Shown here piece after piece: positions 1-57,663 of a DNA stretch of 64,000 bases. Origin of the DNA: Bacteroidota bacterium (GTDB lineage Bacteria > Bacteroidota > Rhodothermia > Balneolales > HLUCCA01); assembly GCA_020832235.1 (NCBI GenBank), contig JAFIEZ010000003.1:333350-397349 (forward strand). The letters run 5' to 3'. The position numbers and the translations under genes were made by a program. How positions within the stretch are numbered: position 1 is the first letter of the stretch; every line of letters begins with the position of its first letter. Below the pieces are notes generated by a model. It worked only from the letters and a program-made list of their open reading frames with translations, was not told the DNA's origin and searched no databases.

Positions 1-1461
1 TCCTACTAGTATTCCGGCAAGCACCGTTACTAATATCAGCAGAATTTGATTGAGTTCAATGTTAAAGGCTGTTATAACTATTCCAGCCATTTCGGCCAGA
101 TAAGCAGATGCATTTGCGACAATAATGTGGCCAAATAACAAACCGGCGAGTGCTCCTATAGCACATATAACCGCCGATTCCATAACTATAATACTAAAAA
201 TAGTACCTCTTTTTGCTCCAAGGGCTCTCATCACAGCCAAATCACGCTTACGCTCTTCCATCGTGTTATAAATAGCGATGAGTACGCTGAAAAGAGCGAC
301 AATAACAACAAACCATGCTACTAATCGCAATACTTGTTCTGCATTTCCTACAATGCTCATCAGGTTTCTGATCTGCATTGCCGGCACAACGGCCATAATG
401 TCTTCTTTGTATGCAAAAAATGGATCGCGCATCATATTTCTTGCAAGTAGTGGATTATCGGGTGTCGGGAAGTTTATCATTCCGGCAATTTGAATAGCCG
501 CTGCAGGATTTACCATTCTAACAAGAACGGCATCAAGCTCCTTTAGTTCTATTTGATTGATTACTTGACTTGCTGCCTGTCCATGTGTGTGATCGTGAGT
601 ATGCCCGTTTTCTTGCCCATGTGAGTGGCTATGGTGTTCGTGGTGACCGTGACTATGTCCGTGATCATGGTGATCGTGACTGTGTTGCTCGTCAGTGTGT
701 CCATGATCGTGGGTGTGTTTCTGGGTATCATGCTCATGGCCATGGCTGTGTTCGTGGGCGTGATGCTCGTGACCGTGCCCATGATCGTGGTGATCATCGT
801 GAAGATGGAGGTGAACGTCATGCAGTGCATGTGTAGTATATAAATCGGTGAATATTGCCCTGTCATTTGCAGTGCCAGATGGTTCCAGTATTCCAACTAT
901 AATTACAGGAACATCATCATGAACATGGGCCTCCGCACCCGGTGCCGGTTCACTGAGACCGTGTGTGATAAATATTTCATCTCCAATTTTGTGTCCTGTT
1001 CTACGTGCAACTTCAGATCCGAATACAGCCTCAAGTGGTCGCTCAAAGTTTCTGCCTTCAGCCATACGGAACGGTTGCCCTCTTCGCGGTTCAGCTTTTT
1101 CAATAAAGTTGGCACTGGTACCTACGACTCTGTACCCTCTGTAGCTGTCACCAACATAAAATGGGAAGGCGATTTCAACACGTGGGTCTCGCTTAGCGGC
1201 TTCATAAACACCAATTGGTATAATTCCAACGGATGTCTCTAGATGGTATAGTGTGTTTAAAGTTGCCTGAAGCTGACTTCCCTTCGCGGCAAATAGCAAG
1301 TCATAGCCCACGCTTGTTTGATTAAAACTTCGCTCTGTTTCCTGTTGGATGACAAGCACTGCAACTACCATTGCTATTCCAAGAGTAATGGAACTTATTG
1401 TAAGCGTTGTGCTTAATAGTCGCTTCTTGAGGTTTTTTAATACAATTGATGTTAGATTCAT
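1..1461 (-). CDS. ABC transporter permease, FtsX/MacB (type VII) family, with histidine-rich extracytoplasmic insert; C-terminus runs off the left window edge
   Basis: Not in the supplied ORF track. Hand translation of the minus strand from ATG 1459-1461 is stop-free to position 1: MNLTSIVLKNLKKRLLSTTLTISSITLGIAMVVAVLVIQQ... The layout is TM1, a large loop domain, then hydrophobic TM2-TM4 (LVAWFVVIVALFSVLIAIY; IVMESAVICAIGALAGLLFGHII; LLILVTVLAGILVG). The FtsX-type motif ERKRDLAVMRALGAKRG is present. The start overlaps the upstream ATPase stop (ATGA). Confidence 0.85.
   Translation of the reverse strand, partial: MNLTSIVLKNLKKRLLSTTLTISSITLGIAMVVAVLVIQQETERSFNQTSVGYDLLFAAKGSQLQATLNTLYHLETSVGIIPIGVYEAAKRDPRVEIAFPFYVGDSYRGYRVVGTSANFIEKAEPRRGQPFRMAEGRNFERPLEAVFGSEVARRTGHKIGDEIFITHGLSEPAPGAEAHVHDDVPVIIVGILEPSGTANDRAIFTDLYTTHALHDVHLHLHDDHHDHGHGHEHHAHEHSHGHEHDTQKHTHDHGHTDEQHSHDHHDHGHSHGHHEHHSHSHGQENGHTHDHTHGQAASQVINQIELKELDAVLVRMVNPAAAIQIAGMINFPTPDNPLLARNMMRDPFFAYKEDIMAVVPAMQIRNLMSIVGNAEQVLRLVAWFVVIVALFSVLIAIYNTMEERKRDLAVMRALGAKRGTIFSIIVMESAVICAIGALAGLLFGHIIVANASAYLAEMAGIVITAFNIELNQILLILVTVLAGILVG
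580..831 (-). repeat. His-rich low-complexity coding tract inside the ABC permease
   Basis: In the permease frame this reads HALHDVHLHLHDDHHDHGHGHEHHAHEHSHGHEHDTQKHTHDHGHTDEQHSHDHHDHGHSHGHHEHHSHSHGQENGHTHDHTHG. By hand count that is about 38 His in about 84 residues. The DNA is an imperfect reiteration of CAY-GAY/GGN codons. Confidence 0.9.
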
Positions 1462-2132
1462 TTAACTGCAAGGTCCGGGCTTGGGGTTAGCGTTAGGATA
1501 TCCAATACACGTTCGAATTGACTAATTACGTCAGATTCATGAGTTACAACGAGAAGTACTTTGCCTTCGGCAGCGTTTTTTAACAGACGAAGCACTTCGG
1601 CTGATGACGAAGGATCCAGGTTTCCTGTAGGTTCATCGGCCAGTATGATTTTTGGGTCATTTACCAACGCTCTTGCAACACATACGCGTTGTTGTTGACC
1701 GACAGACAATTGGGAAGGTTTGTAGTGTAACCTGTCTGTTAAGCCTACTTGAGCCAATACCTCCTCCGCTCTGGATTTTGACGCTGCTTTACCTGAAAAC
1801 ATCATTCCCAACTGTACATTTTCAAGTGCTGTAAATCCGTCTAAAAGGTTGAAGCTCTGAAACACATAACCAATATTGTCGGCTCTGAAACGGTCGCGCT
1901 GTGACTCGGAAAGTTTTGTGATATCTACATCGCCTATTGTAATGGTCCCACTTTCAGGGTTTATTAAACCTGAGAGTAGGTGCAATAAGGTGGTTTTACC
2001 CGTGCCCGAAGGCCCAGCAATTGCTGCATGGGTCCCCTCATTAATTTGTAAATCGTCGATATTGAGTATGGTTTGATAGGAACCATTTTCAGGATTTGTG
2101 TACCCTTTTTTGACATGGTGCATCCGAATCAT
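1458..2132 (-). CDS. ABC transporter ATP-binding protein (MacB/LolD-like)
   Basis: Walker A GPSGTGKTT, ABC signature LSVGQQQR, Walker B ILADEPTGNLD, H-loop VTHE. There are 4-nt overlaps with both neighbours. Confidence 0.93.
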   Translation of the reverse strand: MIRMHHVKKGYTNPENGSYQTILNIDDLQINEGTHAAIAGPSGTGKTTLLHLLSGLINPESGTITIGDVDITKLSESQRDRFRADNIGYVFQSFNLLDGFTALENVQLGMMFSGKAASKSRAEEVLAQVGLTDRLHYKPSQLSVGQQQRVCVARALVNDPKIILADEPTGNLDPSSSAEVLRLLKNAAEGKVLLVVTHESDVISQFERVLDILTLTPSPDLAVK

Positions 2133-2431
2133 TCTGATTCCTCCAGGTCGAAGTGAACTTTATAACCAAGATTTTCAATGGATTCCCGGATGTGAGAACG
2201 ATCGGGTACCCGGTTAGATGGTACAGTAAAAACGACACTACTATCTTCTAAACTTACGCTAATATTGCTCACTCCGTTTATACGTCTCATTTCGTTAGTT
2301 ACTGCTCCGACGCAACTCTCGCAAAACATTCCCTCAACATGGAAAACAACTTCACGTTCTTCTGTTGATTCTTTATTTGAGCATCCCATCAAAACAATTA
2401 TCAGTAGGGTAGTGGTTAGCAGAAATTTCAT
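2129..2431 (-). CDS. Heavy-metal-associated (HMA) domain lipoprotein
   Basis: Signal peptide with lipobox LMGC. GMFCESC matches the GMxCxxC metal-binding loop of the CopZ/HMA fold. 100 aa. Confidence 0.8.
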   Translation of the reverse strand: MKFLLTTTLLIIVLMGCSNKESTEEREVVFHVEGMFCESCVGAVTNEMRRINGVSNISVSLEDSSVVFTVPSNRVPDRSHIRESIENLGYKVHFDLEESE

Positions 2432-2441
2432 AAGTAGTTAA

Positions 2442-2933
2442 TTAGCGTGTATACGTAATAATGTGTCCAACTTGAATATCATGCCGCATTACGTAACCAG
2501 CATTAACCTCCAGTACGTATTTAGCAGGATAAATGGAATCTATCTGGTCACGTGTAAAGGGTTGAGCATTTTGATGAATGTGCACTATGCGCCCTTCACG
2601 GTCAGCAAATAGCAGGTCAAGTGACAAAGGCGTGTTGGCCATCCAAAAGCTTTGACGTTGTTCCGACTCAAATATAAATAACATACCACCGTCAGATTTC
2701 ATTTCTTGCACATCCATTAATCCCAAACTGCGCGATTTGTCATCGTCGGCAATGGCTATATCAATGAGTGCGACTTCCTCGCCGGAAATGCCGCTAATTG
2801 CAAGAGTGGCCGTGTATTCTATGGTTCTTCCTGCAGACCGGCTGCTTTCGCCTTCATCAGGGGTACTTTGGTTGCAAGCCAGCAAAGCAAACGTGAAGAG
2901 TAGAGAATAAAAAAGACGGTGCACGTGATTCAT
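2442..2933 (-). CDS. DUF192 domain-containing lipoprotein
   Basis: Lipobox LLAC. I recognise the core (GLMDVQEM..GMLFIF...FWMANTPLSLDLLFAD..G.IV.I......P) as the DUF192/COG1430 pattern. Confidence 0.7.
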   Translation of the reverse strand: MNHVHRLFYSLLFTFALLACNQSTPDEGESSRSAGRTIEYTATLAISGISGEEVALIDIAIADDDKSRSLGLMDVQEMKSDGGMLFIFESEQRQSFWMANTPLSLDLLFADREGRIVHIHQNAQPFTRDQIDSIYPAKYVLEVNAGYVMRHDIQVGHIITYTR

Positions 2934-3042
2934 TTTCTTGACCAGTAACAGTTGGTAGTGAAAAAGAAATTAAGTATACAAGATATTGCTCAAAAAGCAT
3001 TCGGCTTTACAATATTTGATTATATCAGCAAACCTCCAAACA

Positions 3043-3074
3043 TTTGTAAATCAGTACTATTAAAGCTATATTTG
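3043..3074 (+). promoter_or_regulatory. Candidate Bacteroidota-type sigma-A promoter for the rimP-nusA-infB operon
   Basis: TTTG at 3043-3046, a 20-nt spacer, then TATATTTG at 3067-3074. This is a perfect match to -33 TTTG / -7 TAnnTTTG. Confidence 0.45.
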
Positions 3075-3086
3075 AAAGCTGAAAGG

Positions 3087-3117
3087 AAGTGAGCGCCATA
3101 CGCCCTCACTTTTTTTT
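3087..3117 (+). terminator. Intrinsic-terminator-like hairpin plus U-tract in the rimP leader (possible attenuator)
   Basis: AAGTGAGCGC-CATAC-GCCCTCACTT forms 9 bp with one C.C mismatch, followed by a T run to 3117. It lies 22 nt before the rimP ATG. No upstream plus-strand gene exists for it to terminate. Confidence 0.5.
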
Positions 3118-3139
3118 GTACCTGTAATCTTGAAATGCA

Positions 3140-3601
3140 ATGCAAACACCATTACTCGAAACCCTTACTGAGCTTGTTGAGCCCATTCTTGAAGACACAG
3201 ATTTGTTTCTGGTTGAGATTGAACTAAAGGGTAACGATAGCAACCAGCAAATAGGTATCTACGTAGATAACCATGATGGAGGTGTGAACATTGACCAATG
3301 CGCTGAAGTAAGTAAAAAGCTTGGTTTCATAATTGAATCTCAGGAATTGATTACAGGCAAGTACACATTGAATGTATCTTCCCCTGGGCTTGACCGACCT
3401 CTGAAAGACCGCCGCCAATATCAAAAGAATGTTGGAAGAAAGGCATCTGTAAAGTTTGAGGAGGAAGGGAAGATGAAAAAACTTAAAGGAACTTTCTCTG
3501 AGTTAACCCAAACCGGCGTTGTATTGGTAACCGAGAAGAAGGAACAAAAGGAAATTTCCTGGGAAAGTTTGACTGAAATCAAAATACTTCCCGCATTTTA
3601 A
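3140..3601 (+). CDS. rimP: Ribosome maturation factor RimP
   Basis: 153 aa at the conserved position upstream of nusA. LEVSSPGLDRPL-type motif present (LNVSSPGLDRPLK). Confidence 0.9.
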   Translation: MQTPLLETLTELVEPILEDTDLFLVEIELKGNDSNQQIGIYVDNHDGGVNIDQCAEVSKKLGFIIESQELITGKYTLNVSSPGLDRPLKDRRQYQKNVGRKASVKFEEEGKMKKLKGTFSELTQTGVVLVTEKKEQKEISWESLTEIKILPAF

Positions 3602-3631
3602 TCACTTTATCTGCTGATTTCGGAGAACTGC

Positions 3632-4891
3632 ATGCAAAATGATATTTCAAAACTGATTATTCACTCCTTTTCGGAGATAGCCAAGGAAAAAGGCATTGAC
3701 AGAGATATGCTCTTGTCTATTCTCGAGGATGTTTTTCGATCCATGATTCGTAAAAAATACGATAGTGACGAAGCGTTCGAAGTTATCTTAAATGCAGACC
3801 GTGGTGAAATTCAGATGCTTCATGTAAGAGAGGTCGTGCCTGATAATGAGGTAGGTGATCCCGTTACTGAAATAGGTATTACCGAAGCGCAGAAATTTGA
3901 TCCTGATCTGGAACTCTACGATGAGTTCGCACAAGAAGTCCATATTGAAGATTTTGGAAGACGCTCAGTTATGATGGCCCGACAGACTCTCGCTCAGCGA
4001 ATTCGTGAAATCGAAAAAGATAATGTCTTTGAGGATTACTCCGACAGAGTCGGAGAGATAATCTTAGGTGATGTTTATCAGGTTCGCACCAAGGATATTT
4101 TGGTGAACCATAATGGTATAGAGCTTATACTCCCTAAGTCTCAGCAAATTTATAAAGATCGCTACCGGAAAGGTGATACCATCAGGGCCGTAGTTATCGA
4201 AGTAAAGCGCGAAAACGGCAATCCTGCTGTAATAATTTCAAGAACATCACCACTGTTTTTAGAACGACTTTTTGAGAATGAAATTCCGGAAGTATTTGAC
4301 GGTATTATTGAGCTCATTAAGGTAGTGCGTGAGCCTGGCGATCGTAGTAAGGTTGCGGTGGTATCTCACGATGAACGTGTTGATGCTGTAGGCGCTTGCG
4401 TTGGTATGAAGGGGATTCGTATTCATTCTATTGTACGAGAACTTTGTAATGAGAACATCGATGTAATCAATTACACCAAGGACAAGAAAGAATTTATCAA
4501 GCGTGCACTTCAACCGGCCGATGTACATTCAGTAGAGCTCACCAACGATGAAAAATTTGCTAAGGTGGTGGTGCCCGCTGATCAGGTATCTAAAGCAATT
4601 GGAAGGGGTGGTGTAAATATTCGCCTTGCTTCCATGCTTACAGAGTGTGAAATTGATGTTTATCGTGAGATAGACGAAGAAGACGATATTGACATAAATG
4701 AGTTTACCGAGGATTTCGGTGATGAGGTAATTCGAATACTCTACGAAATTGGATGTGACACGGCACGTGATGTTCTTCGTATGGGTGTAGATGAAGTAGT
4801 AAAACGATCTGAAGAAAAGATCGACAAAGAGTTGGCGGCTCGAATCATCAAAACGATTGAAGTTGAGTTTGAAGATGAAGCGAACGCATAA
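3632..4891 (+). CDS. nusA: Transcription termination/antitermination factor NusA
   Basis: N-terminal domain, S1 domain and two KH domains (GMKGIRIHSIVREL; GRGGVNIRLA). Synteny rimP-nusA-infB. Confidence 0.96.
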   Translation: MQNDISKLIIHSFSEIAKEKGIDRDMLLSILEDVFRSMIRKKYDSDEAFEVILNADRGEIQMLHVREVVPDNEVGDPVTEIGITEAQKFDPDLELYDEFAQEVHIEDFGRRSVMMARQTLAQRIREIEKDNVFEDYSDRVGEIILGDVYQVRTKDILVNHNGIELILPKSQQIYKDRYRKGDTIRAVVIEVKRENGNPAVIISRTSPLFLERLFENEIPEVFDGIIELIKVVREPGDRSKVAVVSHDERVDAVGACVGMKGIRIHSIVRELCNENIDVINYTKDKKEFIKRALQPADVHSVELTNDEKFAKVVVPADQVSKAIGRGGVNIRLASMLTECEIDVYREIDEEDDIDINEFTEDFGDEVIRILYEIGCDTARDVLRMGVDEVVKRSEEKIDKELAARIIKTIEVEFEDEANA

Positions 4892-4925
4892 GTAACACGA
4901 ATAAACGGAAGGTTAGATTCAAAGA

Positions 4926-7742
4926 ATGGCGGTAGACGCAAAACCAAAAAGACTGTTTAAAGTTGCCTCAGAATTTAATGTATCAACACAATCTATTGTT
5001 GATGCACTTGGGAAGAATGGGTTCACTATTGACAATAAACCTAATTCAAAAATCACCCAGGAAATGTATGAGGTACTTGAACGCAACTACGGTGAAGATA
5101 AAGCTCGTAGCAGGGAGCATGAACGCTCAAGAGAAGAATACGAGACTCGTCGTACAGCAATCTTATCTTCCAGAAACGAAAAAGTTACCCTGAATTCACT
5201 TGATTCTATTGATTCACTTGATCCTTTGGAACCACTTGACTCTCTGGAACCTCAGGATACTATTTCTGAACAGCCTGCACCAAAACCTACTGATGTACAG
5301 GAGCAACCTGAAAAGGCTGAACCTCCGAAGGCACCTGAACCACCTAAGGTTGAGAAGCAAGAAGTTGTTGTAGAACCTGTGAAGCCGGAACCGGTTAGAC
5401 CTGAAGTAGAAACTACCCCAGATAAGGATGACAAAAAGCCGGAACCGGTTGAGAAGACAGAGACCGCTGAAGCAGACAAGCCATCTGACCCTGAACCAAT
5501 CGAGGAAGAGGGCAAGACAGTTACTGCTGCTAAACCTCCTGCACCCGAACCGGAACCCACGCCACCTGCTGCTGTGGATGACGAGCCGGAAGAAGTTATT
5601 CGTGGCAGAGCACAGCGCTTGAAAGGTACCAGAGTTATCGGCAGAATCGACGTTGCTCAGACTGTACCTGAGGACGCAGAAGAGCCACTTAAGAAACGCA
5701 AAAAGAAAAAGAAAAAAGTAGTATCTGCAAAAACGGATGACCCGGTAAAAAAAGCAGAAACGACCGAAGACGATGGCGCTTCAAAATCACGCAAGAAGAA
5801 AAAAAGAATTACGGGTAAGCCCGAGAAAAAAGTTTCTTCGGAAGATGTAGATACGAAAATGCGTGAAACCATGGCGTTGCTACAAGGCGGTTCAGGAAAG
5901 AAACGTCAGAAAAGAAGACGAGCGAAGCGTGATGAAGCCGCAGCGGAGCGCGAGCTCATGGAAGAGATGAGCAAAGAACAAGGCTCTATTCTCGAAGTAA
6001 GCGAATTTATCACCGTTAGTGATTTGGCTGACTTGATGAACGTGACCGTCAATCAAGTAATTACTGCTTGTATGAGCAACGGTATGTTCGTGTCAATTAA
6101 CCAACGATTAGACGCAGCAAGCATAGAGTTAATTGCAGTTGAGTTTGACCGGGAAGTTAAATTTATTGATGCCGAGCAAATGTCTGCAGAGCTGGTCGAG
6201 GAGGAAGATGACCCAGACACACTCGAACAGCGAGCACCCGTTGTAACCGTAATGGGCCACGTTGACCATGGTAAGACTTCACTTCTTGACTACATCCGTA
6301 AAACTCGTGTTACGGCAGGCGAAGCAGGTGGTATAACGCAACATATTGGAGCCTATGCGGTTAGTCTATCAGATGGAAGAAAGATTACATTTCTCGATAC
6401 TCCAGGCCACGAAGCTTTTACCGCGATGCGTGCGCGTGGAGCTCAGGCTACAGATATTGTAATTCTAGTTGTTGCGGCAGACGATCGCGTGATGCCCCAG
6501 ACTATTGAGGCTATCAATCACGCACAGGCAGGTGGAGTACCTATTGTCGTTGCAATTAATAAAATGGATAAGCCTGAAGCCAATCCAGATAAAATCAGAC
6601 AACAGTTGTCTGACCACAATGTAATTGTTGAAGATTGGGGTGGTAAAACACAGGTTGCAGAAGTTTCGGCGCACTCTGGGGCAGGTATCGATTCTTTACT
6701 TGAAAAAGTGCTTATTGAAGCTGAACTCATGGAGTTAAAGGCGAATCCAAACCGAAAAGCAAGTGGTATCATTCTTGAGACTAAGGTCGATAAAGGAAAA
6801 GGTGTGGTTGCTAACGTTCTTGTGCAAAAAGGTAGCATGAAAGTCGGAGATCCATTTGTAGCAGGGCAGTATTACGGTAGAGTTCGCCTAATGGAAAATG
6901 AGCACGCCGAGAAACTCACCGATGCAGGACCATCAACTCCCATCCAGTTAACAGGATTCGATGGATTACCTCAGGCTGGAGACAAAATTGTTGTTACGGT
7001 TGACGAGAAAACGGCCAAAGAAATTGCCATAGAACGCCAGCAGATTAAACGTCAACAAGATCTTCGTAAAGTCAAACATCTTACACTAGATGATATTGCT
7101 CGCAGACTCGCACTTGGTGATATAGCAGAACTCAATCTCATTATTAAAGGTGATGTTGATGGTTCAATTGAAGCTTTATCTGGTTCACTTCAGAAAATCA
7201 GCAATGATGAAGTCCAGGTGCATGTGATTCACACTGGTGTAGGGGCGATTTCTGAATCTGATGTACTTCTTGCATCTGCCTCAGACGCCATTATAATTGG
7301 TTTTCAGGTAAGACCCACGTCCAACGCCAGAAAATTAGCAGAGAAAGAACAAATTGATATTCGCTTATTCTCTGTTATTTATGACGCTGTTGACGCTGTT
7401 AAAGATGCACTAGAAGGAATGCTAAGTCCTGAAATTGGCGAGAAGATTACCTCTAATGTCGAAGTTCGTGAAACATTCAAAGTGCCTGGTGCTGGAACTA
7501 TTGCCGGATGTTATGTTACCGAAGGGAAAATTACACGTAATACAAAGATTCGTCTTATACGAGATGGTATTGTAATTTTTGACGGTACCCTATCGTCACT
7601 GAAACGTTTCAAAGACGATGTTCGTGAAGTGAGCAGTGGTTATGAGTGTGGTATGGGCATCAATAACTATAATGACATCAAAGTTGGTGATATCATAGAG
7701 GGCTATGAAATCACAGAAACCAAGCGTAAACTTTCTCAATGA
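4926..7742 (+). CDS. infB: Translation initiation factor IF-2
   Basis: G domain motifs GHVDHGKTSLLD, DTPGHEAF, NKMD. The N-terminal region is P/E/K-rich and low-complexity. Confidence 0.97.
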   Translation: MAVDAKPKRLFKVASEFNVSTQSIVDALGKNGFTIDNKPNSKITQEMYEVLERNYGEDKARSREHERSREEYETRRTAILSSRNEKVTLNSLDSIDSLDPLEPLDSLEPQDTISEQPAPKPTDVQEQPEKAEPPKAPEPPKVEKQEVVVEPVKPEPVRPEVETTPDKDDKKPEPVEKTETAEADKPSDPEPIEEEGKTVTAAKPPAPEPEPTPPAAVDDEPEEVIRGRAQRLKGTRVIGRIDVAQTVPEDAEEPLKKRKKKKKKVVSAKTDDPVKKAETTEDDGASKSRKKKKRITGKPEKKVSSEDVDTKMRETMALLQGGSGKKRQKRRRAKRDEAAAERELMEEMSKEQGSILEVSEFITVSDLADLMNVTVNQVITACMSNGMFVSINQRLDAASIELIAVEFDREVKFIDAEQMSAELVEEEDDPDTLEQRAPVVTVMGHVDHGKTSLLDYIRKTRVTAGEAGGITQHIGAYAVSLSDGRKITFLDTPGHEAFTAMRARGAQATDIVILVVAADDRVMPQTIEAINHAQAGGVPIVVAINKMDKPEANPDKIRQQLSDHNVIVEDWGGKTQVAEVSAHSGAGIDSLLEKVLIEAELMELKANPNRKASGIILETKVDKGKGVVANVLVQKGSMKVGDPFVAGQYYGRVRLMENEHAEKLTDAGPSTPIQLTGFDGLPQAGDKIVVTVDEKTAKEIAIERQQIKRQQDLRKVKHLTLDDIARRLALGDIAELNLIIKGDVDGSIEALSGSLQKISNDEVQVHVIHTGVGAISESDVLLASASDAIIIGFQVRPTSNARKLAEKEQIDIRLFSVIYDAVDAVKDALEGMLSPEIGEKITSNVEVRETFKVPGAGTIAGCYVTEGKITRNTKIRLIRDGIVIFDGTLSSLKRFKDDVREVSSGYECGMGINNYNDIKVGDIIEGYEITETKRKLSQ

Positions 7743-8095
7743 GCATCCGTACCGAACGCATAGCGGCTCAACTCAAACGTGATATGGGACCTCTGCTGCA
7801 GAAATATCAGCGAGGCTCCATGATTACCGTTACCACAGTACGCGTGAGCGATGATCTGATGGTCGCTAAAATATATTTAAGCATATATACACCAGACGGT
7901 GATAATCAATCCGCATTTGAGTATGTACTCGAAAACGCAACGGAAATTCGATCTGAGCTGGCAAGTTTAATCAGGCATCAGGTTCGCCGTATTCCAGAGC
8001 TACACTTCTATCTGGATGATACCGCAGAATATGTTAATCGTATTGAGCATCTGTTTAAAAAGATTAAGGATGATCGTGACACCCGTCAGGGGTAA
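7739..8095 (+). CDS. rbfA: Ribosome-binding factor A
   Basis: 118 aa; 4-nt overlap with the infB stop. I recognise the RbfA family pattern (VTVTTVRVSDDLMVAKIY). Confidence 0.9.
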   Translation: MSIRTERIAAQLKRDMGPLLQKYQRGSMITVTTVRVSDDLMVAKIYLSIYTPDGDNQSAFEYVLENATEIRSELASLIRHQVRRIPELHFYLDDTAEYVNRIEHLFKKIKDDRDTRQG

Positions 8096-10279: not shown

Positions 10280-12382
10280 ATGAAAGCTGATTTTAGATCC
10301 GTAGAATTTGCACCAGGAAAGGTGCTATCCATTGAAACAGGCCGTTTGGCCAAGCAGGCACATGGTGCTGTAGTTGCCCGAATGGGTGATACCATGGTGC
10401 TGGCAACCGCAGTTGGTGCTTCAGAAGCACGTCCAGGACAAGGTTTTTTCCCTTTGTCTGTAGATTTCCGCGAAAATTACTCTGCCGCGGGTAAATTCCC
10501 GGGTGGTTTTATCAAAAGAGAAGGCCGCCCCAGCGAAAAAGAAATTCTCTCAGCACGTCTCATCGATCGTACTATTCGTCCGATGTTCCCTGAAGGGTAT
10601 CTGAATGAAGTACAGGTTATGGTGCAGGTCATCTCCTCAGACGGACAGAATGACGGCGATGTAATAGGCGGTACGGCCACATCACTGGCACTGCTTGTTT
10701 CTGATATCCCTTTTGAAGAGCCCATTGCTGAAGTACGAGTTGCTCGAGTAGAAGGGGAGTTTATCGTTAACCCAACCGTTGATGAAATTAAAAAAGCCGA
10801 CATCGACATGGTAATCGGTGGTACGGCCGAAAGTGTTGCCATGGTAGAAGGCGAAATGGATGAAGTTTCTGAGAAAGAAATGATCGAAGCCATTCGTGTT
10901 GGTCATGCTGCTATCAAAAAACTGTGTGAATTCCAGGTTGAAATCCAGAAAGAATTCGGCAAAGAGAAGCGTGAAGTTGAAATTGCTAAAGCGGATGAAG
11001 CATTAGTTACGAAAGTTAAAGACATCGTAGGTGACCGTTTTCGTACCACTTCCAAAGCAGGTCTGGGCAAAAAGGAATACTCTAATGCCATAAAAGAGAT
11101 TGTTAACGAAGTTCAAGAGAAGCTCCAGGAAGAATTTCCTGAGCAGGAAGGTGATATTTCTGAGATTTGTCATGACTTGCAGAAAGAGGCCCTACGTTCA
11201 CTCATTCTGGATGATAAATACCGTATAGACGGACGTAAGCCAGATGAAATCCGCGATATCTGGACCGAGGTAGGCTACCTGCCAAGAACGCACGGCTCTG
11301 CAATCTTTACCCGTGGTGAAACCCAGTCTTTGGTTACCGTAACCTTAGGTACAAAGCGCGACGAGCAGTCTGTAGACACGCTTTTCGACACGGAGTCTAA
11401 GCGTTTCATGCTGAACTACAACTTCCCGCCATTCTGTACCGGTGAAGTGAAGATGAAGTTTTCTGTAAGTCGTCGTGAAATCGGTCACGGTAATCTTGCT
11501 GAGCGTGCTCTGAAACGACTCATTCCTTCCGCTGAAGAGTTTGCTTACACGATTCGTATTGTCTCCGATATCCTGGAGTCGAACGGATCATCCTCTATGG
11601 CGTCTGTCTGCGGCGGTTCTATGGCAATGATGGACGCTGGTGTACCCATCAAGAAACCGGTTGCCGGTATAGCCATGGGAATGGTTGTTGGAGAAGACGG
11701 TCGCACCGTAGTTCTCAGCGACATTCAAGGTGAGGAAGATCACTTCGGTGATATGGACTTTAAAGTTACGGGAACTGTTGATGGTATTACCGCTTGCCAG
11801 ATGGACATAAAAGTTCGTGGCGTTTCTTTCGAAGTAATGGAAGAAGCTATGCTCGATGCCCGTAAAGGCCGTTTGCATATCTTGGAAAAAATGGCTGAAA
11901 CCATTTCTATGCCACGTGCAGAACTTTCCCGTTTTGCCCCTTCTTTCCGCCGAATTGAAATCAACAGCGATCAGATTGGTGCAGTAATTGGTCCTGGCGG
12001 CAAAGTAATTCAGGGAATTCAGAAAGAAACTGGTACTGAAATCAACATCGAAGAGCAAGGTAACAAGGGTATTGTTATCGTATCTGCTGTTGATGCCGAT
12101 GCCGCTGAAGCTGCTGTAGCCTGTATTAAAGCAATCACTGGATCGCTCGAAGAAGGCGAAATTTACGAAGGAACAGTACGCTCCATCAAAGAGTATGGTG
12201 CATTTATTGAACTGCTTCCCGGTAAAGAAGGTTTGCTTCATATCTCAGAAATCGATCACAAACGAATTGCCCGAGTAGAAGACGTGCTTCAGGAAGGCGA
12301 TAAAGTAAGTGTGAAACTCCTGAAAATTGAAAACGGTGGCAAACTTCGCTTGTCCAGAAAAGCGTTGATTCCAAACGAATAA
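10280..12382 (+). CDS. pnp: Polyribonucleotide nucleotidyltransferase (PNPase)
   Basis: Two RNase PH domains, a KH domain (GPGGKVIQGIQKETG) and an S1 domain (GTVRSIKEYGAFIELLPGKEGLLHISE). rpsO-pnp synteny. Confidence 0.97.
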   Translation: MKADFRSVEFAPGKVLSIETGRLAKQAHGAVVARMGDTMVLATAVGASEARPGQGFFPLSVDFRENYSAAGKFPGGFIKREGRPSEKEILSARLIDRTIRPMFPEGYLNEVQVMVQVISSDGQNDGDVIGGTATSLALLVSDIPFEEPIAEVRVARVEGEFIVNPTVDEIKKADIDMVIGGTAESVAMVEGEMDEVSEKEMIEAIRVGHAAIKKLCEFQVEIQKEFGKEKREVEIAKADEALVTKVKDIVGDRFRTTSKAGLGKKEYSNAIKEIVNEVQEKLQEEFPEQEGDISEICHDLQKEALRSLILDDKYRIDGRKPDEIRDIWTEVGYLPRTHGSAIFTRGETQSLVTVTLGTKRDEQSVDTLFDTESKRFMLNYNFPPFCTGEVKMKFSVSRREIGHGNLAERALKRLIPSAEEFAYTIRIVSDILESNGSSSMASVCGGSMAMMDAGVPIKKPVAGIAMGMVVGEDGRTVVLSDIQGEEDHFGDMDFKVTGTVDGITACQMDIKVRGVSFEVMEEAMLDARKGRLHILEKMAETISMPRAELSRFAPSFRRIEINSDQIGAVIGPGGKVIQGIQKETGTEINIEEQGNKGIVIVSAVDADAAEAAVACIKAITGSLEEGEIYEGTVRSIKEYGAFIELLPGKEGLLHISEIDHKRIARVEDVLQEGDKVSVKLLKIENGGKLRLSRKALIPNE

Positions 12383-51795: not shown

Positions 51796-52350
51796 TTAAA
51801 CTGATTGAACTACAATTTCCGGATCAATTCGTCTTACCATACTCTCAATGGCATATAAAGTACCGCTAGTAGCTGTCGGACAGGTACCACAAGCTCCTTG
51901 ATAGTGAACTTTGAGTGTATTGTCTACCAAACCTATTACTTTCAACCCACCACCATCTGCAAGTAGATATGGACGTACCTGTTCATCAAGCATTTGATTG
52001 ATTTGCTTTAGTCGCGGATCATCACTTTCCATAGCTTCTTTAGAAGCATTTACTTCGTCGCTGTCACTTTCGAGCATTCCAACAGGCTCAGCTTCACGAA
52101 TTGGTGGTGCAAGTTTGCGTAAAAGTTCGTTCCAATCTGAGCTTCCGTCTTGTGTAACTGTGACATAATTGTCTACATAGTACACTGAAATAACGCTTTC
52201 TATTTCGAATAGCAAAGAGGCAAACGGGTCTTTTGCTGCTTGCTCTGCATTTTCATAAGAACGTGTAATTCCCTGGGAAATGGGATCTTTTAAAACAAAA
52301 CGCATCGCGTTTGGATTTGGTGTTCGCTCTATTTCTGCAATCTTTGGCAT
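51796..52350 (-). CDS. NifU/Nfu-family Fe-S scaffold or carrier protein
   Basis: Nfu_N-like N-terminus (ERTPNPNAMRFVL). The C-terminal NifU domain has the GACGTCP CxxC motif. Confidence 0.85.
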   Translation of the reverse strand: MPKIAEIERTPNPNAMRFVLKDPISQGITRSYENAEQAAKDPFASLLFEIESVISVYYVDNYVTVTQDGSSDWNELLRKLAPPIREAEPVGMLESDSDEVNASKEAMESDDPRLKQINQMLDEQVRPYLLADGGGLKVIGLVDNTLKVHYQGACGTCPTATSGTLYAIESMVRRIDPEIVVQSV

Positions 52351-52407
52351 AATTCTTACTCCTGTTTGTCCAGTCTGATGTTAACTTAAATTCTTTCTTT
52401 ACGGAGT

Positions 52408-52863
52408 TTATTCCGTAGTTATAATTTCTTTGCCTTTCAATGCTGCATCCAACGTATGCCAGGCAAGTGTGGCACATTTAACTCTTGCAGGAAGGTCTCT
52501 AACCCCTGCAAAGATGGCTAGTTTCCCTAGTTGATGTGGATGTTCAGCAATATCAAGCTTGCCAGTGCTCATGTCATGAAATTGATGAAATAACGTTCTA
52601 GCTTCTGCGATAGTTTTTCCTTTTACTGCCGTTGTCATCATAGATGCCGATGCTTTAGAAATAGCACATCCATCACCAGTAAAGGATACATCCGTTATAA
52701 TATTTTCACTATCTATTTTTACATAGAGCTGCAATTTATCGCCACACAACGGATTGTGTCCTTTCGACTCATAGTCGGAATCATCCATTTCTCTGAAGTT
52801 GCGTGGACTCTTATTGTGGTCAATAATAAGTTCCTGGTATAGTTGTTTCATTCTGGGATCCAT
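52408..52863 (-). CDS. sufU: SufU-type (IscU-like, zinc-dependent) sulfur transfer protein
   Basis: LYQELIIDHNKSPRNF, NPLCGD, GCAISKASASMM, VKCATLAW. All three conserved Cys are present. Confidence 0.88.
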   Translation of the reverse strand: MDPRMKQLYQELIIDHNKSPRNFREMDDSDYESKGHNPLCGDKLQLYVKIDSENIITDVSFTGDGCAISKASASMMTTAVKGKTIAEARTLFHQFHDMSTGKLDIAEHPHQLGKLAIFAGVRDLPARVKCATLAWHTLDAALKGKEIITTE

Positions 52864-54107
52864 CAGCCAAGAACCTCCTTAACCTCGTGTAAAGCATTGA
52901 TTAACGTGTCTATTTCTGACTTGGTATTGTAGAAGGCAAACGATGCACGTGTGGTAGCCGGAACATTGAAACGTTCCATTACAGGCTGTGCACAGTGGTG
53001 GCCAGATCTGACCGCAACACCATGAAAGTCAAGTATTGTTCCAATATCATGAGGATGTATGCCCTCAAGTATGAAGCTTAATACGGATGCTTTATTTGAA
53101 GCAGTTCCAATGATTTTTAGCCCTTCAATTTCTGCAACTCGCTGAGTCGCATAAGATAGAAGTTCATTTTCATAAGCTAGTATATTATCACGGCCTACAG
53201 CATCAAGGTACTCTATTGCTTTACCAAGCATTATTACCTGAGCTATTCCAGGTGTGCCGGCTTCAAATTTATATGGCAGATCATTGTACGTGATACCAGT
53301 TTCAAAAGAAACACTTAAAATCATATCACCACCACCACGATAAGGCGGCATTTCCTCCAAGTGTTCTGCTTTACCAAACAATATACCCGTACCGGTTGGT
53401 CCAAGCATTTTGTGGGCGGAAAACACATAGAAATCACAGTCTATATCGCTCACATTTACATTCATATGTGGAACCGACTGAGCACCATCTATAACAGTCA
53501 CAGCACCTGCTTCGTGGGCTAGTTGTGTAATTTCCTTTACAGGATTTATTGTGCCGAGCGCATTTGATACGTGATTAACTGCAACAATCTTTGTGCGTTC
53601 ACTTAGTAAATTTTTATAGGCATTTAAGTCTAATTCGCCTTCGTCAGTAATAGGAATAACTAGAATGTTGAGATTAAGCTGTTTTGATAATATATCCCAT
53701 GGAACGATATTCGCATGATGTTCCATATTGGATATTAAAATCTCATCTCCTTCCTTCAGAAACGTTTTTCCATAGGACTGTGCAATCAAGTTTATACTAT
53801 CTGTGGCACCGCTAGTGTAGATGATTTCGCGTTCTTCTTTTGCTCCGATGAATTTCTGTACCTTCTGCCTCACTTTTTCGAAAGCATCAGTGGCTTCCTG
53901 GCTCAGAGTATGAACGCCTCTGTGTACATTTGAATGATAGTTTCTATGATATTCGCCAAAGGCATCCATAACAACGGTAGGCATTTGAGAAGATGCTGCG
54001 TTGTCTAGGTAGACTAAGGGGTTGTCGCCTATACGACGCGACAGAATAGGGAAATCTTTCCTTATTCTGTCCACGTCAAAATGTACTTTTTGTTCAGAAG
54101 CGAACAT
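52863..54107 (-). CDS. sufS: Cysteine desulfurase SufS (class II)
   Basis: PLP lysine SAHKMLGPTG and catalytic Cys RSGHHCAQP. Start is taken at ATG 54107 (MFASEQKVHFD...), which avoids overlap with sufD. The ORF track extends to 54185. Confidence 0.93.
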   Translation of the reverse strand: MFASEQKVHFDVDRIRKDFPILSRRIGDNPLVYLDNAASSQMPTVVMDAFGEYHRNYHSNVHRGVHTLSQEATDAFEKVRQKVQKFIGAKEEREIIYTSGATDSINLIAQSYGKTFLKEGDEILISNMEHHANIVPWDILSKQLNLNILVIPITDEGELDLNAYKNLLSERTKIVAVNHVSNALGTINPVKEITQLAHEAGAVTVIDGAQSVPHMNVNVSDIDCDFYVFSAHKMLGPTGTGILFGKAEHLEEMPPYRGGGDMILSVSFETGITYNDLPYKFEAGTPGIAQVIMLGKAIEYLDAVGRDNILAYENELLSYATQRVAEIEGLKIIGTASNKASVLSFILEGIHPHDIGTILDFHGVAVRSGHHCAQPVMERFNVPATTRASFAFYNTKSEIDTLINALHEVKEVLG

Positions 54108-54120
54108 GTGATAATTGTCC

Positions 54121-55437
54121 TTATTCGAGACCGCGTTTAGTGTAAGTTTCAACAGCCTTTCGCAAGTCAGCTTTAATGGAGTCAACAGGGAGTGACTCTA
54201 TAACCTCAGTGGCAAAACCGAAAGTCAGAATTTCTTTCGTCTCAGAATCGTTTAGGCCTCTGCTTCTGAGGTAAAACTCCTGTTCACTATCGGTTTGTCC
54301 TACGGTAGCACCGTGGGAACACTTTACATCATCTGCGAATATTTCCAGCTGCGGTTTGGTGTAAACCATACCATCGAGGGAAAGTTGAAGATTATGGTTT
54401 TCTTGAAAAGCATCTGTTTTCTGGGCGTCTTTTCGTACAAATATCTTCCCGTTGAAAACACTGGTAGCTTTGCCATCAACAATAGTTTTGTGTAACTGGT
54501 GAGAAGTGCAATTAGCTACTCTGTGATCCATGATACTGTGAGTATCGGAAAGTTGGTTACTGGCAACCAGAACAAGTCCGTCCAGGGTCGCATGCGAACC
54601 TTCTCCGGCCATAATTGCCCTCACATCATTTCGGAATATCTCCGCGCCAAGAGATACGGTGTACGACTGAAGGTCGGCGCCGCGCTGCAGCTGACTTACA
54701 ATTCTGTTCACATGATATGCCTTGAGGCCATCTTTTTGTAAGCGTACGTGAGACATATGGGCTTCTTCGCCAAGCATAATTTCTGTGAAGGACGTCGTTA
54801 GGTACGATTGGTCATCATCGCCCAGATACTCTTCAACAACAGTAAACTCTGCATGACGTTCTGCAATAATAAGATTACGCGGGAACGAAGCCGCATTTTC
54901 GTGCCCATGTGTTAAATAAACAAGATGAATTGGTCTTTCGAATTTGGTTTCCTTTGGAATGTATATAAAAGCACCATCCTCAAACATTGCAGTATTTAGC
55001 AATGAAAAGAAATCTTTTTCGAAATTGTTTGCCTTATTGAAACTGACCTCGATCAGTGCGGCATGTTTTTCAACAGCTTCACACAGATTGGTTACAATGA
55101 TTCCATCCGGAATGTTAGTTACTTTTGACAGAGACTCACTGTAGATTCCATTGACAAAAACCAGTGTTGAATCTTTTGCCTCTGGTACGGTTGCCGTATC
55201 ATAGGTAACCGCTTTAATATCTGCAGGAGCTGCTTGCACAAAAGCGGATCTGGATATGGCTTTGATGTTGGTGAATCTCCATTCTTCGTCGCGAGTAGTT
55301 GGAAAGGGTGTCGAAGCAAGTTCAACAGACGCTTCTTTTTTAATAGCATCCATTGATCTCAGGTTCATTACCGGCACCTTTCCACTATTCAGCGTATCTA
55401 AATTGAAAGTGGCATCCTGTGCGGTTGTTAAACTCAT
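54121..55437 (-). CDS. sufD: Fe-S cluster assembly protein SufD
   Basis: 438 aa beta-helix family, positioned between sufC and sufS. C-terminal pattern ...CSHGATVGQ...FYLRSRG. Confidence 0.9.
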   Translation of the reverse strand: MSLTTAQDATFNLDTLNSGKVPVMNLRSMDAIKKEASVELASTPFPTTRDEEWRFTNIKAISRSAFVQAAPADIKAVTYDTATVPEAKDSTLVFVNGIYSESLSKVTNIPDGIIVTNLCEAVEKHAALIEVSFNKANNFEKDFFSLLNTAMFEDGAFIYIPKETKFERPIHLVYLTHGHENAASFPRNLIIAERHAEFTVVEEYLGDDDQSYLTTSFTEIMLGEEAHMSHVRLQKDGLKAYHVNRIVSQLQRGADLQSYTVSLGAEIFRNDVRAIMAGEGSHATLDGLVLVASNQLSDTHSIMDHRVANCTSHQLHKTIVDGKATSVFNGKIFVRKDAQKTDAFQENHNLQLSLDGMVYTKPQLEIFADDVKCSHGATVGQTDSEQEFYLRSRGLNDSETKEILTFGFATEVIESLPVDSIKADLRKAVETYTKRGLE

Positions 55438-56183
55438 TACTTAGCCTCCACTACTTCTTCATATCCCTGGTCTTCAAGCTGATGTGCAAGTTCTTTACCT
55501 CCAGATTTTACAATTCGGCCACCCTTTAGAACATGTACAAAATCAGGCGTTATATAATTAAGGATACGCTGGTAGTGTGTAACTAGCAGCACACCTTTAT
55601 CTTTAGATTTTATTTTATTGATGCCATCAGAAACAATACGAAGGGCGTCAATATCTAAGCCTGAATCAGTTTCATCGAGTAATGCCATTTTTGGATTAAG
55701 CACGGCCATTTGAAGAATTTCGTTACGTTTCTTTTCACCGCCAGAAAATCCATCATTCACGCTTCTATCCAGAAATTTGGGATCCATTTCTACCAAATCA
55801 AGCTTTCCGCGTACGTAATCATCGAACTCTAATGGGTCTAGTTCTTCTTCTCCATGTTCGCGTCGCATTGCATTGTAAGATTGTCGCATTAGCATTGAGT
55901 TGCTAACGCCTGGAATTTCAACTGGATATTGAAAAGCAAGAAAGATACCCATACGGGCACGCTCATCGGCATCCAGGTCTTCAATATTTGTACCCTCGAA
56001 CAGTATTTCACCTTCGGTTACTTCGTAGGCTGGGTGGCCAGCGATTACTTTAGAAAGGGTACTCTTTCCACTGCCGTTGGGTCCCATTATCGCGTGAACT
56101 TCACCGGCTTTGATTTCAAGGTTTATACCCTTCAGAATCTCGATGCCATCAACATTGGCATGTAAATTTTTAATTTGTAACAC
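55437..56183 (-). CDS. sufC: Fe-S cluster assembly ATPase SufC
   Basis: Walker [10 protein letters not shown], signature [13 protein letters not shown], Walker [12 protein letters not shown]. Confidence 0.96.
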
Positions 56184-56220
56184 GTTTATCTTATCTAAGA
56201 GTTAATATTAATAATATTTA

Positions 56221-57663
56221 TTAGCCTACGCTTCCTTCAAGCTTGATAGACAACAATTTAGTCGCCTCAACTGCAAATTCCATTGGAAGTTCTTTGAATA
56301 CTTCTTTTACAAAGCCATTAATAATTAATGAGACCGCGTTTTCCTCATCTAATCCACGTTGCTGTAGGTAGAATATTTGATCTTCACCAATTTTAGATGT
56401 CGTGGCTTCGTGCTCAATACTTGCAGTGCTGTTGGCCGATTCAATATAGGGGAATGTATGTGCCCCGCACTGATCACCGATCAGCATAGAATCGCAAACA
56501 CTATAATTTCTGGCGCCATCAGCTTTTTTACCAATCTTGACGAGTCCGCGATAGCTGTTGTTAGATTCACCAGCTGATATACCCTTAGATATTATAGTTG
56601 AGCGTGTATTCTTGCCTAAGTGAATCATTTTAGTTCCGGTATCTGCCTGCATTTTGTCATTTGTCACGGCAACAGAGTAAAACTCTCCTATTGAGTTGTC
56701 ACCTTGCAGAATTACACTAGGGTATTTCCATGTAATTGCTGAGCCGGTTTCAACCTGCGTCCATGAAATCTTGGAATTCACACCCTTGCAGATGCCGCGT
56801 TTTGTAACAAAATTATAGATTCCACCAACACCGTTTTTATCTCCAGAATACCAGTTCTGCACTGTGGAGTACCGGATTTCAGCATTGTCAAGTGCAACAA
56901 GCTCAACTACGGCAGCATGAAGCTGGTTTTTGCTGAACATCGGTGCAGTACATCCTTCGAGGTATGATACGGATGAGCCTTCCTCAGCAACGATTAGTGT
57001 TCGCTCGAACTGCCCTGATTCTTCGTTGTTAATACGGAAGTATGTAGACAGCTCCATGGGGCAGGCTACACCTTTGGGTATATAGCAGAACGATCCGTCT
57101 GTAAAAACAGCTGAGTTTAATGCTGCAAAAAAGTTGTCATTTGCAGGTACAACCGAACCAATGTATTTTTTGATTAAGTCGGGGTAATCTTTTACAGCTT
57201 CTGAAATGGAACAGAAAATAACACCTGCTTCAGCGAGTTTTTCACGAAATGTGGTAGCTACAGATACACTGTCAAATACAGCGTCTACAGCAACATTTTG
57301 CAGCAATTTTTGTTCATTCAGTGGTATTCCAAGCTTCTCATACGTTTCTAGAATGGCCGGGTCAACCTCGTCTAAACTATCAAGGGTCGGTTTTTTCTTC
57401 GGAGCAGAATAATATATAATGTTATTATAGTCTACCGGAGGGTAGTCTACATTAGGCCATGTAGGTTCTTCCATTTTAAGCCAGTTGCGATAAGCTTTCA
57501 AACGGAACTCAAGCATAAATTCGGGCTCCCCTTTTTTCTCCGATATCATTCTTATGATATCTTCGTTGAGGCCGCGCGGAAATTCCTCGTATTCAACCTC
57601 TGTTTTGAATCCATATTTATATGGTTGGGAGACGACGGAGTCTAAAGCATCTGTTTCGCTCAT
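56221..57663 (-). CDS. sufB: Fe-S cluster assembly scaffold SufB
   Basis: 480 aa with highly conserved SufB blocks (YSTVQNWY, ...[22 protein letters not shown]). Confidence 0.96.

Follow-up and report, generated by a model that had tools for sequence, protein, structure and literature searches.

A Zrg-like ABC operon with a histidine-rich permease loop in a Balneolales-type genome

The Zrg system of Vibrio and the PA4063-PA4066 system of Pseudomonas aeruginosa are Zur-regulated, are expressed in zinc starvation and belong to the least understood zinc-starvation systems of these genera. In Vibrio, zrgC encodes an ATP-binding cassette (ABC) ATPase, zrgB a permease and zrgE a DUF3299 protein, next to zrgA (DUF2796/ZrgA) and zrgD. 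Here we describe a relative of these systems on a 64,000-nucleotide (nt) stretch of contig JAFIEZ010000003.1 from a Balneolales-type metagenome-assembled genome (MAG), hereafter called the window, in which a histidine-rich segment is inserted into the permease itself. The zrgE, zrgB, zrgC and zrgA genes of V. parahaemolyticus were induced 76- to 206-fold on zinc deficiency (PMC9817125). In V. cholerae, mutation of zrg genes impairs growth when zinc is limiting, and up to 10 zinc ions are bound by ZrgA, in part through an unstructured His-rich loop (PMC9820375). PA4063 also binds zinc through His-rich loops and has a non-canonical ferredoxin-like fold (PMC8561739). The literature on Zrg/PA4063-66 is split between import of zinc and export of a cobalt-metallophore complex.

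Operon structure and relation to Zrg and PA4063-PA4066

The locus is a chromosomal five-gene operon that encodes a DUF192 lipoprotein, an HMA lipoprotein, an ABC ATPase, an FtsX/MacB-fold permease and a DUF3299 protein. The first four genes are read on the minus strand of the window and were assigned by a Pfam domain search: the DUF192 gene at 2442-2933 (163 amino acids (aa); PF02643, E 2.5e-30), the HMA gene at 2129-2431 (100 aa; PF00403, E 2.6e-13), the ATPase gene at 1458-2132 (224 aa; ABC_tran, E 2.6e-36) and the permease gene at 1-1461 (487 codons, open at the window edge; MacB_PCD, E 4.3e-15; FtsX, E 4.6e-13). An earlier reading of this DNA from its letters alone (the sequence-only reading) had described four co-directional genes of these types running from 2933 past position 1, and its layout was reproduced in full: ATGA start/stop overlaps lie at 2129-2132 (genes 2 and 3) and 1458-1461 (genes 3 and 4), exact in the sequence, and the spacer from the stop of DUF192 to the start of HMA is 10 nt long (TTAACTACTT). 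Via the ATGA overlaps, the ATPase gene is translationally coupled to genes 2 and 4.

The permease fragment in the window (487 aa) matches a 507-aa database protein (P0001) at 100% identity, and three contigs encode this protein. One of them, L002, agrees with window 1-8000 at 100% identity, its position 11461 corresponding to window position 1. On the identical contigs the permease gene ends 63 nt past the window edge, which corresponds to 20 further codons (487 of 507 lie inside the window), and a fifth co-directional gene begins 8 nt after its stop. This gene, outside the window, encodes a DUF3299 protein of 183 aa with a Sec-type signal peptide (PF11736, E 1.2e-13; L001:11532-12083) and is directly followed by a convergent fructose-1,6-bisphosphatase (FBPase) gene, fbp. 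The operon therefore consists of five genes and has no membrane-fusion or TolC partner at its left, where the sequence-only reading had supposed that one could lie. A tripartite efflux pump of the MacAB-TolC type was rejected, since a MacA/HlyD adaptor or outer-membrane channel is found neither in the whole operon nor recurrently near its relatives: a Pfam count over 98 co-directional genes that flank related loci has no HlyD, TolC or OEP family among those that recur, and a partner elsewhere in the genome is possible.

The P. aeruginosa locus in our set (L089) is PA4063-PA4066 and has the order ZrgA (PF10986), ABC_tran, MacB_PCD/FtsX permease (421 aa) and DUF3299. Aligned end to end with the PA4065-type permease, the window permease gave an hhalign probability of 100% (E 1.2e-62; 415 columns; 30% identity), and BLASTP against a 96%-identical PA4065 orthologue gave 35% and 32% identity over two halves (E 2e-36 and 3e-16). 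With the PA4064-type ATPase of P. aeruginosa, the window ATPase shares 39% identity (E 6e-43). The DUF3299 protein aligns with its Pseudomonas orthologue at a BLASTP E of 1e-10 and matches one solved structure, PDB 4hsp (E 8.9e-07). The matched segment of 4hsp occurs with 100% identity in DUF3299 proteins of P. aeruginosa, and 4hsp is PA4066 (PMC8561739). We show here that the ATPase, the four-helix MacB-fold permease and the DUF3299 protein are homologous to those of Zrg/PA4063-66 and are encoded in the same order, in both cases in an operon that contains no membrane-fusion or TolC partner. Assignment of this core to the Zrg/PA4064-PA4066 family is well supported by these comparisons.

The likeness extends to the periplasmic residues D105, H167, H181 and D200 of the permease and to a disordered His/Asp/Glu-rich segment predicted to be exposed to the periplasm, with metal binding predicted for the window's loop as well. 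The location of this segment differs, however, since it forms an insert of the permease in the window, whereas it resides on the separate ZrgA/PA4063 protein in the described systems; in the alignment with PA4065, this insert is the chief point of difference. Unlike Zrg/PA4063-66, the window operon furthermore places DUF192 and HMA-CxxC lipoproteins ahead of the ATPase and comes from another phylum, and a ZrgD-like small gene was not recognised in it, with no profile search aimed at ZrgD. The sequence-only reading had known of no characterised system with this combination. This must now be restricted, as the core is homologous to PA4064-PA4066/ZrgCBE, to the His-insert permease and to the association with DUF192 and HMA: the part of the literature consulted brought up the Zrg and PA4063-66 papers and contained no description of a His-rich permease insert, of the wider family or of the DUF192/HMA association.

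The closest characterised relatives, ZrgABCDE and PA4063-PA4066, serve in zinc starvation, and the locus is therefore best read as having a metal function that faces the periplasm. With a probability of roughly 0.55, we propose that the operon encodes a Zrg-like, periplasm-facing system for handling a divalent metal, probably zinc, with the His loop built into the permease. In this proposal we infer which metal is handled, how the operon is regulated and in which direction the system works (acquisition or trafficking, not efflux).

Permease fold and the histidine-rich loop

An AlphaFold2 model of the permease, built with 75 homologues, reached a mean predicted local distance difference test score (pLDDT) of 86.8 and a predicted template modelling score (pTM) of 0.80. 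It contains long helices at residues 15-50, 360-403, 418-459 and 470-495, the first and second of which flank a mixed alpha/beta domain. The top Foldseek matches in the PDB were LolCDE, MacB, Spr0694-0695 of S. pneumoniae, HrtBA and YbbAP, with a probability of 1.00 and E values of 1e-15 to 1e-7 for the LolCDE/YbbAP/HrtBA-type systems. The predicted fold is thus type VII (MacB/LolCDE), having four transmembrane (TM) helices and a large extracytoplasmic domain between TM1 and TM2 (MacB_PCD and FtsX). The adjacent, coupled ATPase agrees with this type: its best NCBIfam matches were LolD, FtsE, DevA and MacB at 172-200 bits, below the curated cut-offs of the LolD, FtsE and MacB models. Membership in the LolCDE or MacB families themselves was rejected. 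The permease scored 35 bits with the lolCE model TIGR02212 against a cut-off of 362 and 24 bits with LolE models against 439-540, and solved MacB, LolE and LolF were matched solely in the C-terminal FtsX region, with an E of about 1e-6.

MacAB-TolC has the LolD/MacB-type nucleotide-binding domain in common with the window system, but the window ATPase is a separate polypeptide, neither the operon nor the surroundings of its relatives contain a MacA-type adaptor or TolC-type channel, and sequence similarity to MacB is confined to the FtsX region (E about 1e-5). We know of no His-rich insert in MacB. LolCDE-LolA, FtsEX-EnvC, YbbAP-TesA and HrtBA likewise share the fold, as well as the combination of an ABC motor and a conserved periplasmic partner, which in this operon is likely to be DUF3299. 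However, their partners belong to other families, they possess nothing like the His-rich loop or the HMA protein, and the window permease stays far under the LolCE cut-off. The ZepA zinc system was also considered and found to be unrelated, as its paper describes no ABC or FtsX component.

The His-rich tract is encoded at 583-834 on the minus strand and covers aa 210-293, in which 38 of 84 residues are His, in agreement with the approximately 84 residues and 38 His given by the sequence-only reading; the whole 487-aa fragment has 44 His. The His residues fall in H-x-H, H-D-H and H-G-H patterns. The model places it between helices 15-50 and 360-403, so that the TM1-TM2 loop position claimed earlier was upheld, and its core is the sole low-confidence stretch of the model (aa 228-288, pLDDT <50). 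In the order of secondary-structure elements it follows the first subdomain block and precedes the last beta-alpha-beta unit before TM2. Strong positive charge is found at the permease N-terminus (K9, K12, K13, R14) and in the TM2-TM3 loop (RKRDLAVMRALGAKRG), which is consistent with the N-in topology of the family and therefore with the tract being a disordered loop inside the periplasmic domain. The His loop is accordingly predicted to be both periplasmic and disordered. It resembles the His-rich loops of ZnuA and ZrgA/PA4063, which are likewise disordered periplasmic H-D/E-H repeats, and its composition is similar to that of ZrgA's AHDDHDHDHAHG and EEHDHDDGDHDEHEGHHH, but theirs are carried by a soluble binding protein and the window's by a MacB-fold membrane permease. 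A regulatory role has been proposed for the His-rich loop of ZnuA.

We show here that the loop composition recurs. At the insert site, 75 homologues carry 5-144 aa (median 50) with 26% His, 17.5% Asp and 11% Glu, and the remainder of the same proteins contains 2.0% His. At least 5 His were present in 53 of the 75 sequences and at least 20 in 25, and some family members had just 1-3. The insert thus keeps its composition across homologues and varies in sequence and length, and it occupies the equivalent site in Balneolales, Planctomycetota, Hydrogenedentota and others. Among the 149 best family representatives, 34 contained at least 10 His per 40 aa, always around mid-protein. PA4065-type permeases have no equivalent insert; their 120 closest homologues are all 420-421 aa long, with at most 5 His per 40-residue window. 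The enrichment (26% against 2.0% His) together with the TM1-TM2 placement indicates that the tract is more than chance. Tandem repeats in the tract are limited to a single 27-nt unit (1.9 copies, 84% match, window 634-685), so that it is not a simple recent repeat expansion.

These data bear on the idea that the system acts on a non-metal envelope substrate, either by extracting lipids or lipoproteins, as LolCDE and YbbAP-TesA do, or by controlling a periplasmic enzyme, as FtsEX-EnvC does, and that the His tract is a tolerated low-complexity expansion. The 27-nt repeat would fit slippage, the members with 1-3 His at the site would fit such tolerance, and two of the operon products are lipoproteins; type VII systems are also functionally diverse, each with a dedicated periplasmic partner (PMC12646458). 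Still, we hold this idea to be highly improbable, since very distant phyla share the His/Asp/Glu composition at a single site in proteins whose flanks are just 30-40% identical, the LolCE score is 35 bits against a cut-off of 362, an HMA protein is part of the operon and the sole characterised relatives are zinc-starvation genes.

Proposed metal handling by the core, and rival readings

The family alignment shows no variation at D105, H181 and D200 of the permease's periplasmic domain and almost none at H167, and PA4065 keeps all four residues, as GDS, AHG, KHDD and DR; this conservation makes them candidate metal ligands. In the proposed role in divalent-metal handling, the His/Asp loop of the permease would stand in for ZrgA's loops of gammaproteobacteria and act as a low-affinity, high-capacity tether that gathers periplasmic divalent ions, most likely Zn2+ and possibly Co2+, Ni2+ or Cu2+. 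From the loop, ions would pass to a putative D105/H167/H181/D200 site and/or to DUF3299. ATP binding and hydrolysis by the cytoplasmic ATPase would power a periplasmic conformational cycle (mechanotransmission) that releases the metal or passes it on. In Balneolales, the CxxC HMA and DUF192 lipoproteins would be added periplasmic accessories, the former plausibly a chaperone.

Other type VII systems are each paired with a dedicated periplasmic partner, namely LolA, EnvC, MacA or TesA (PMC12646458), and by analogy DUF3299 is likely to be the periplasmic partner of this ABC machine. It has a nearly invariant Cys, which stands in the motif G-C-x-H-V-P-P-P in Balneolales and Pseudomonas (PA4066) and in C-x-x-C in members from Planctomycetes, Cytophagales and Hydrogenedentota. 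Such conservation suggests that the protein has a metal or redox site, though PA4066 is reported to be without evident zinc binding. The sequence-only reading had proposed a periplasm-facing module for metal capture, extrusion or sensing. The type VII fold, the loop placement, the export signals on all accessory proteins of the operon and the zinc-starvation relatives speak for its periplasm-facing, metal-directed character.

Several points weigh against a Zrg-like zinc function. Firstly, to our knowledge the structurally studied type VII ABC systems are mechanotransmitters or extractors, none of which is known to have an import path through the membrane. Secondly, ZrgA (PF10986) was not detected: it is not among the five operon genes, the ZrgA HMM (hidden Markov model) matched the Pseudomonas locus only, among 85 loci, and ZrgA is not among the recurrent Pfam families of the 98 flanking genes. 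This search used an HMM seeded with one sequence and a Pfam count table of 25 families over approximately 6 kb on each side, and genome-wide absence is not proven by it. Thirdly, the nearest solved relatives of the HMA lipoprotein are metal-binding domains of Cu(I) P-type ATPases and CopZ rather than zinc proteins, and PA4066 lacks evident zinc binding, as mentioned above. The operon is moreover set amid housekeeping genes, with rimP-nusA-infB on one side and fbp on the other, and neither a Zur box nor another metal operator was recognised in the upstream region 2934-3139 by palindrome search and alignment of relatives' upstream regions, no Zur motif of the Balneolales phylum being known to us. 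Lastly, PA4064/65 was argued in 2024 to be a MacB-type exporter, possibly of pyochelin-cobalt, that limits Co accumulation and is not a zinc importer (PMC11481552), which means that the transport direction of the family is disputed.

This proposed export role of the Pseudomonas homologue (PMC11481552) raises the question if the window system exports a metallophore or another organic molecule, with the His loop being only a periplasmic metal sensor or regulator comparable to the ZnuA loop. A disordered and variable loop is what would be expected of such a regulatory or sensing appendage. The conservation of His and Asp in the folded periplasmic domain suggests, however, that metal is contacted directly, and the accessory proteins include a bona fide metal-binding domain. 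Metallophore biosynthesis genes were not recognised in the window gene map or in the flanks of related loci, and the family spans phyla of very different secondary metabolism. Export of a metallophore with a sensing loop is thus very unlikely in our judgement, and divalent-metal handling by the Zrg-like system remains the reading that we prefer.

The locus is part of a far larger family, of about 1,900 clusters at 50% identity in many phyla: a profile search of 1.84 billion cluster representatives (clusters at 50% identity) gave 1,893 members at E <= 1e-30, and DUF3299 is the recurrent partner in the sampled loci. In this limited sample, the His-rich element is either a separate protein (ZrgA, Pseudomonas loci) or a permease insert (the other sampled phyla). 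If this either/or pattern holds, it would speak for metal ions meeting the permease's own periplasmic domain, and it would extend the functions of mechanotransmission-type ABC systems to metal handling. Tentatively, the family may then form a widespread, uncharacterised type VII branch that handles metal ions directly, by means of a permease poly-His/Asp tether and DUF3299 and without a solute-binding protein or tripartite pump, though we rate this generalisation as rather doubtful. Direct metal handling, if true, would amount to a new mechanism by which ATP drives the capture or transfer of periplasmic zinc, possibly even its uptake, and would bear on the import-export dispute on Zrg/PA4063-66 by pointing to metal rather than metallophore as the substrate. 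The loop in cis and ZrgA in trans form a natural experiment on substrate identity.

Accessory genes, synteny and surroundings

The HMA lipoprotein has a signal peptide and lipobox (MKFLLTTTLLIIVLMGC, ...VLMGC, lipobox Cys17) and the metal motif GMFCESC, as the sequence-only reading had recognised, and PF00403 is covered in full (positions 1-62 of 62). The lipobox Cys and G-M-x-C-x-x-C are unchanged in 5 of 5 orthologues. MerP and CopZ similarly consist of a single HMA domain with GMxCxxC, and as in MerP, which has a Sec signal, the window protein is exported, through its lipoprotein signal. It differs in being lipid-anchored, in being encoded in a Zrg-like ABC operon rather than a mer or cop operon and in scoring below the curated MerP and CopZ cut-offs. 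The DUF192 protein bears a lipoprotein-type signal as well (MNHVHRLFYSLLFTFALLAC, ...FALLAC) and is homologous to the uncharacterised PDB entries 3pjy and 3m7a; the literature found on DUF192 contained nothing functional.

To compare gene neighbourhoods, relatives were scanned with one genome per species, which gave 80 loci from Balneolales, Kapaibacteria, Ignavibacteria, Hydrogenedentota, Planctomycetota, Cytophagales and a gammaproteobacterial MAG. Using locally built HMMs, the ATPase was found in 77 of 84 permease loci and DUF3299 in 57 of 84, often duplicated in Planctomycetes. DUF192 was confined to loci of the Balneolales clade and not detected in relatives of other phyla; it is the first operon gene in L007, L008, L010, L011, L086, L087, L088 and the P0026 contig. 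The HMA gene is present in L010, L011, L086, L087 and the P0026 contig and absent from L007, L008 and L088. The complete order DUF192-HMA-ATPase-permease-DUF3299 was found in L086, L087 and the P0026 contig, L088 having DUF192 without HMA, and in these four rimP-nusA-infB adjoins the operon as in the window. The survey thus indicates that the ancient module is ATPase-permease-DUF3299, with DUF192 as a clade-specific constant and HMA as a clade-specific option.

This distribution is relevant to a role in periplasmic metal detoxification, in which HMA would capture Cu(I), or Cd, Hg or Zn, the His loop would buffer the excess and the ABC machine would expel or sequester it in a MacB-like manner. 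The MacB fold of the permease, the invariant GMxCxxC of the HMA orthologues and the closeness of this domain to Cu(I)-ATPase metal-binding domains and CopZ would suit such a role, as would the argument that the P. aeruginosa homologue is an exporter limiting Co accumulation (PMC11481552). Yet HMA is dispensable, being absent from L007, L008, L088 and all other phyla, where the His loop and DUF3299 are nonetheless kept, and a membrane-fusion or outer-membrane channel gene is neither present in the operon nor recurrent in related loci. Metal-resistance genes or a MerR/ArsR-type regulator were not recognised beside the operon by inspection, and the characterised relatives respond to zinc starvation and not to excess. 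We therefore consider efflux unlikely. For the window as a whole, the gene map contains only housekeeping genes, and no metal regulator was recognised in it, as judged from first residues and crude composition without a family search.

Some relatives of the Zrg-like core have other genes at their side. In a Balneolales-like MAG (L009:824-7858), the ATPase-permease-DUF3299 module lacks DUF192 and HMA, and the co-directional genes ahead of it encode a MarR/TrmB-like regulator, a small His-containing membrane protein, a TonB-dependent receptor and a 199-aa lipoprotein. A TonB-dependent receptor is also encoded at L028, in divergent orientation. These two receptors hint weakly at an uptake context. 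In 18 Planctomycete loci (including L017:7642-9420 and L018:7580-9568), the permease gene and a tandem pair of DUF3299 genes are separated by a conserved gene, whose product has approximately 440-660 aa. In the Pfam count of the 98 flanking genes, a HEAT-repeat gene of Planctomycetes was the only one to recur. Several of the 440-660-aa proteins match HEAT repeats, and the L018 representative has a CPFC motif near its N-terminus; the gene is a lineage-specific accessory of the ABC module.

The divergent intergenic region between the operon and rimP (2934-3139) presumably contains the operon promoter. A block in it, ATCAAATATTGTAAAG, is kept in the closest relatives. An inverted-repeat search of 2900-3160 gave no convincing palindrome, and most of the conservation in the aligned upstream regions of five relatives coincides with the promoter and leader of rimP, which is read divergently from the other strand. 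Ahead of operon gene 1 in L007 (~1490-1510), L008 (~4720-4735) and L011 (~25-40), we observed a palindrome GCAAC-N3-GTTGC (TGCAACTCTATTGCA in L008) followed by an A/T-rich stretch, which could be an operator overlapping the promoter. As an operator in the window this palindrome was rejected, since it is absent upstream of the window operon and shows no enrichment across the window, which has 4 matches where 8.3 would be expected.

Elsewhere in the window, 51796-57663 on the minus strand looks like a suf-type Fe-S cluster assembly operon, with an ABC ATPase-like open reading frame at 55437-56183 and a large upstream one at 56221-57663, as judged from first residues only. Rfam gave no known RNA element in the window. 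Upstream of rimP (plus strand; ATG at 3140), a promoter-like site at 3044-3072 includes TATATTTG. It is followed by a GC-rich hairpin at 3089-3109 (GTGAGCGC/GCCCTCAC), itself without an Rfam match, and a run of eight T at 3110-3117, 22 nt before the rimP start. Hairpin and T-run are kept in L087, L086 and L008, and together they look like a leader attenuator of the rimP-nusA-infB operon.

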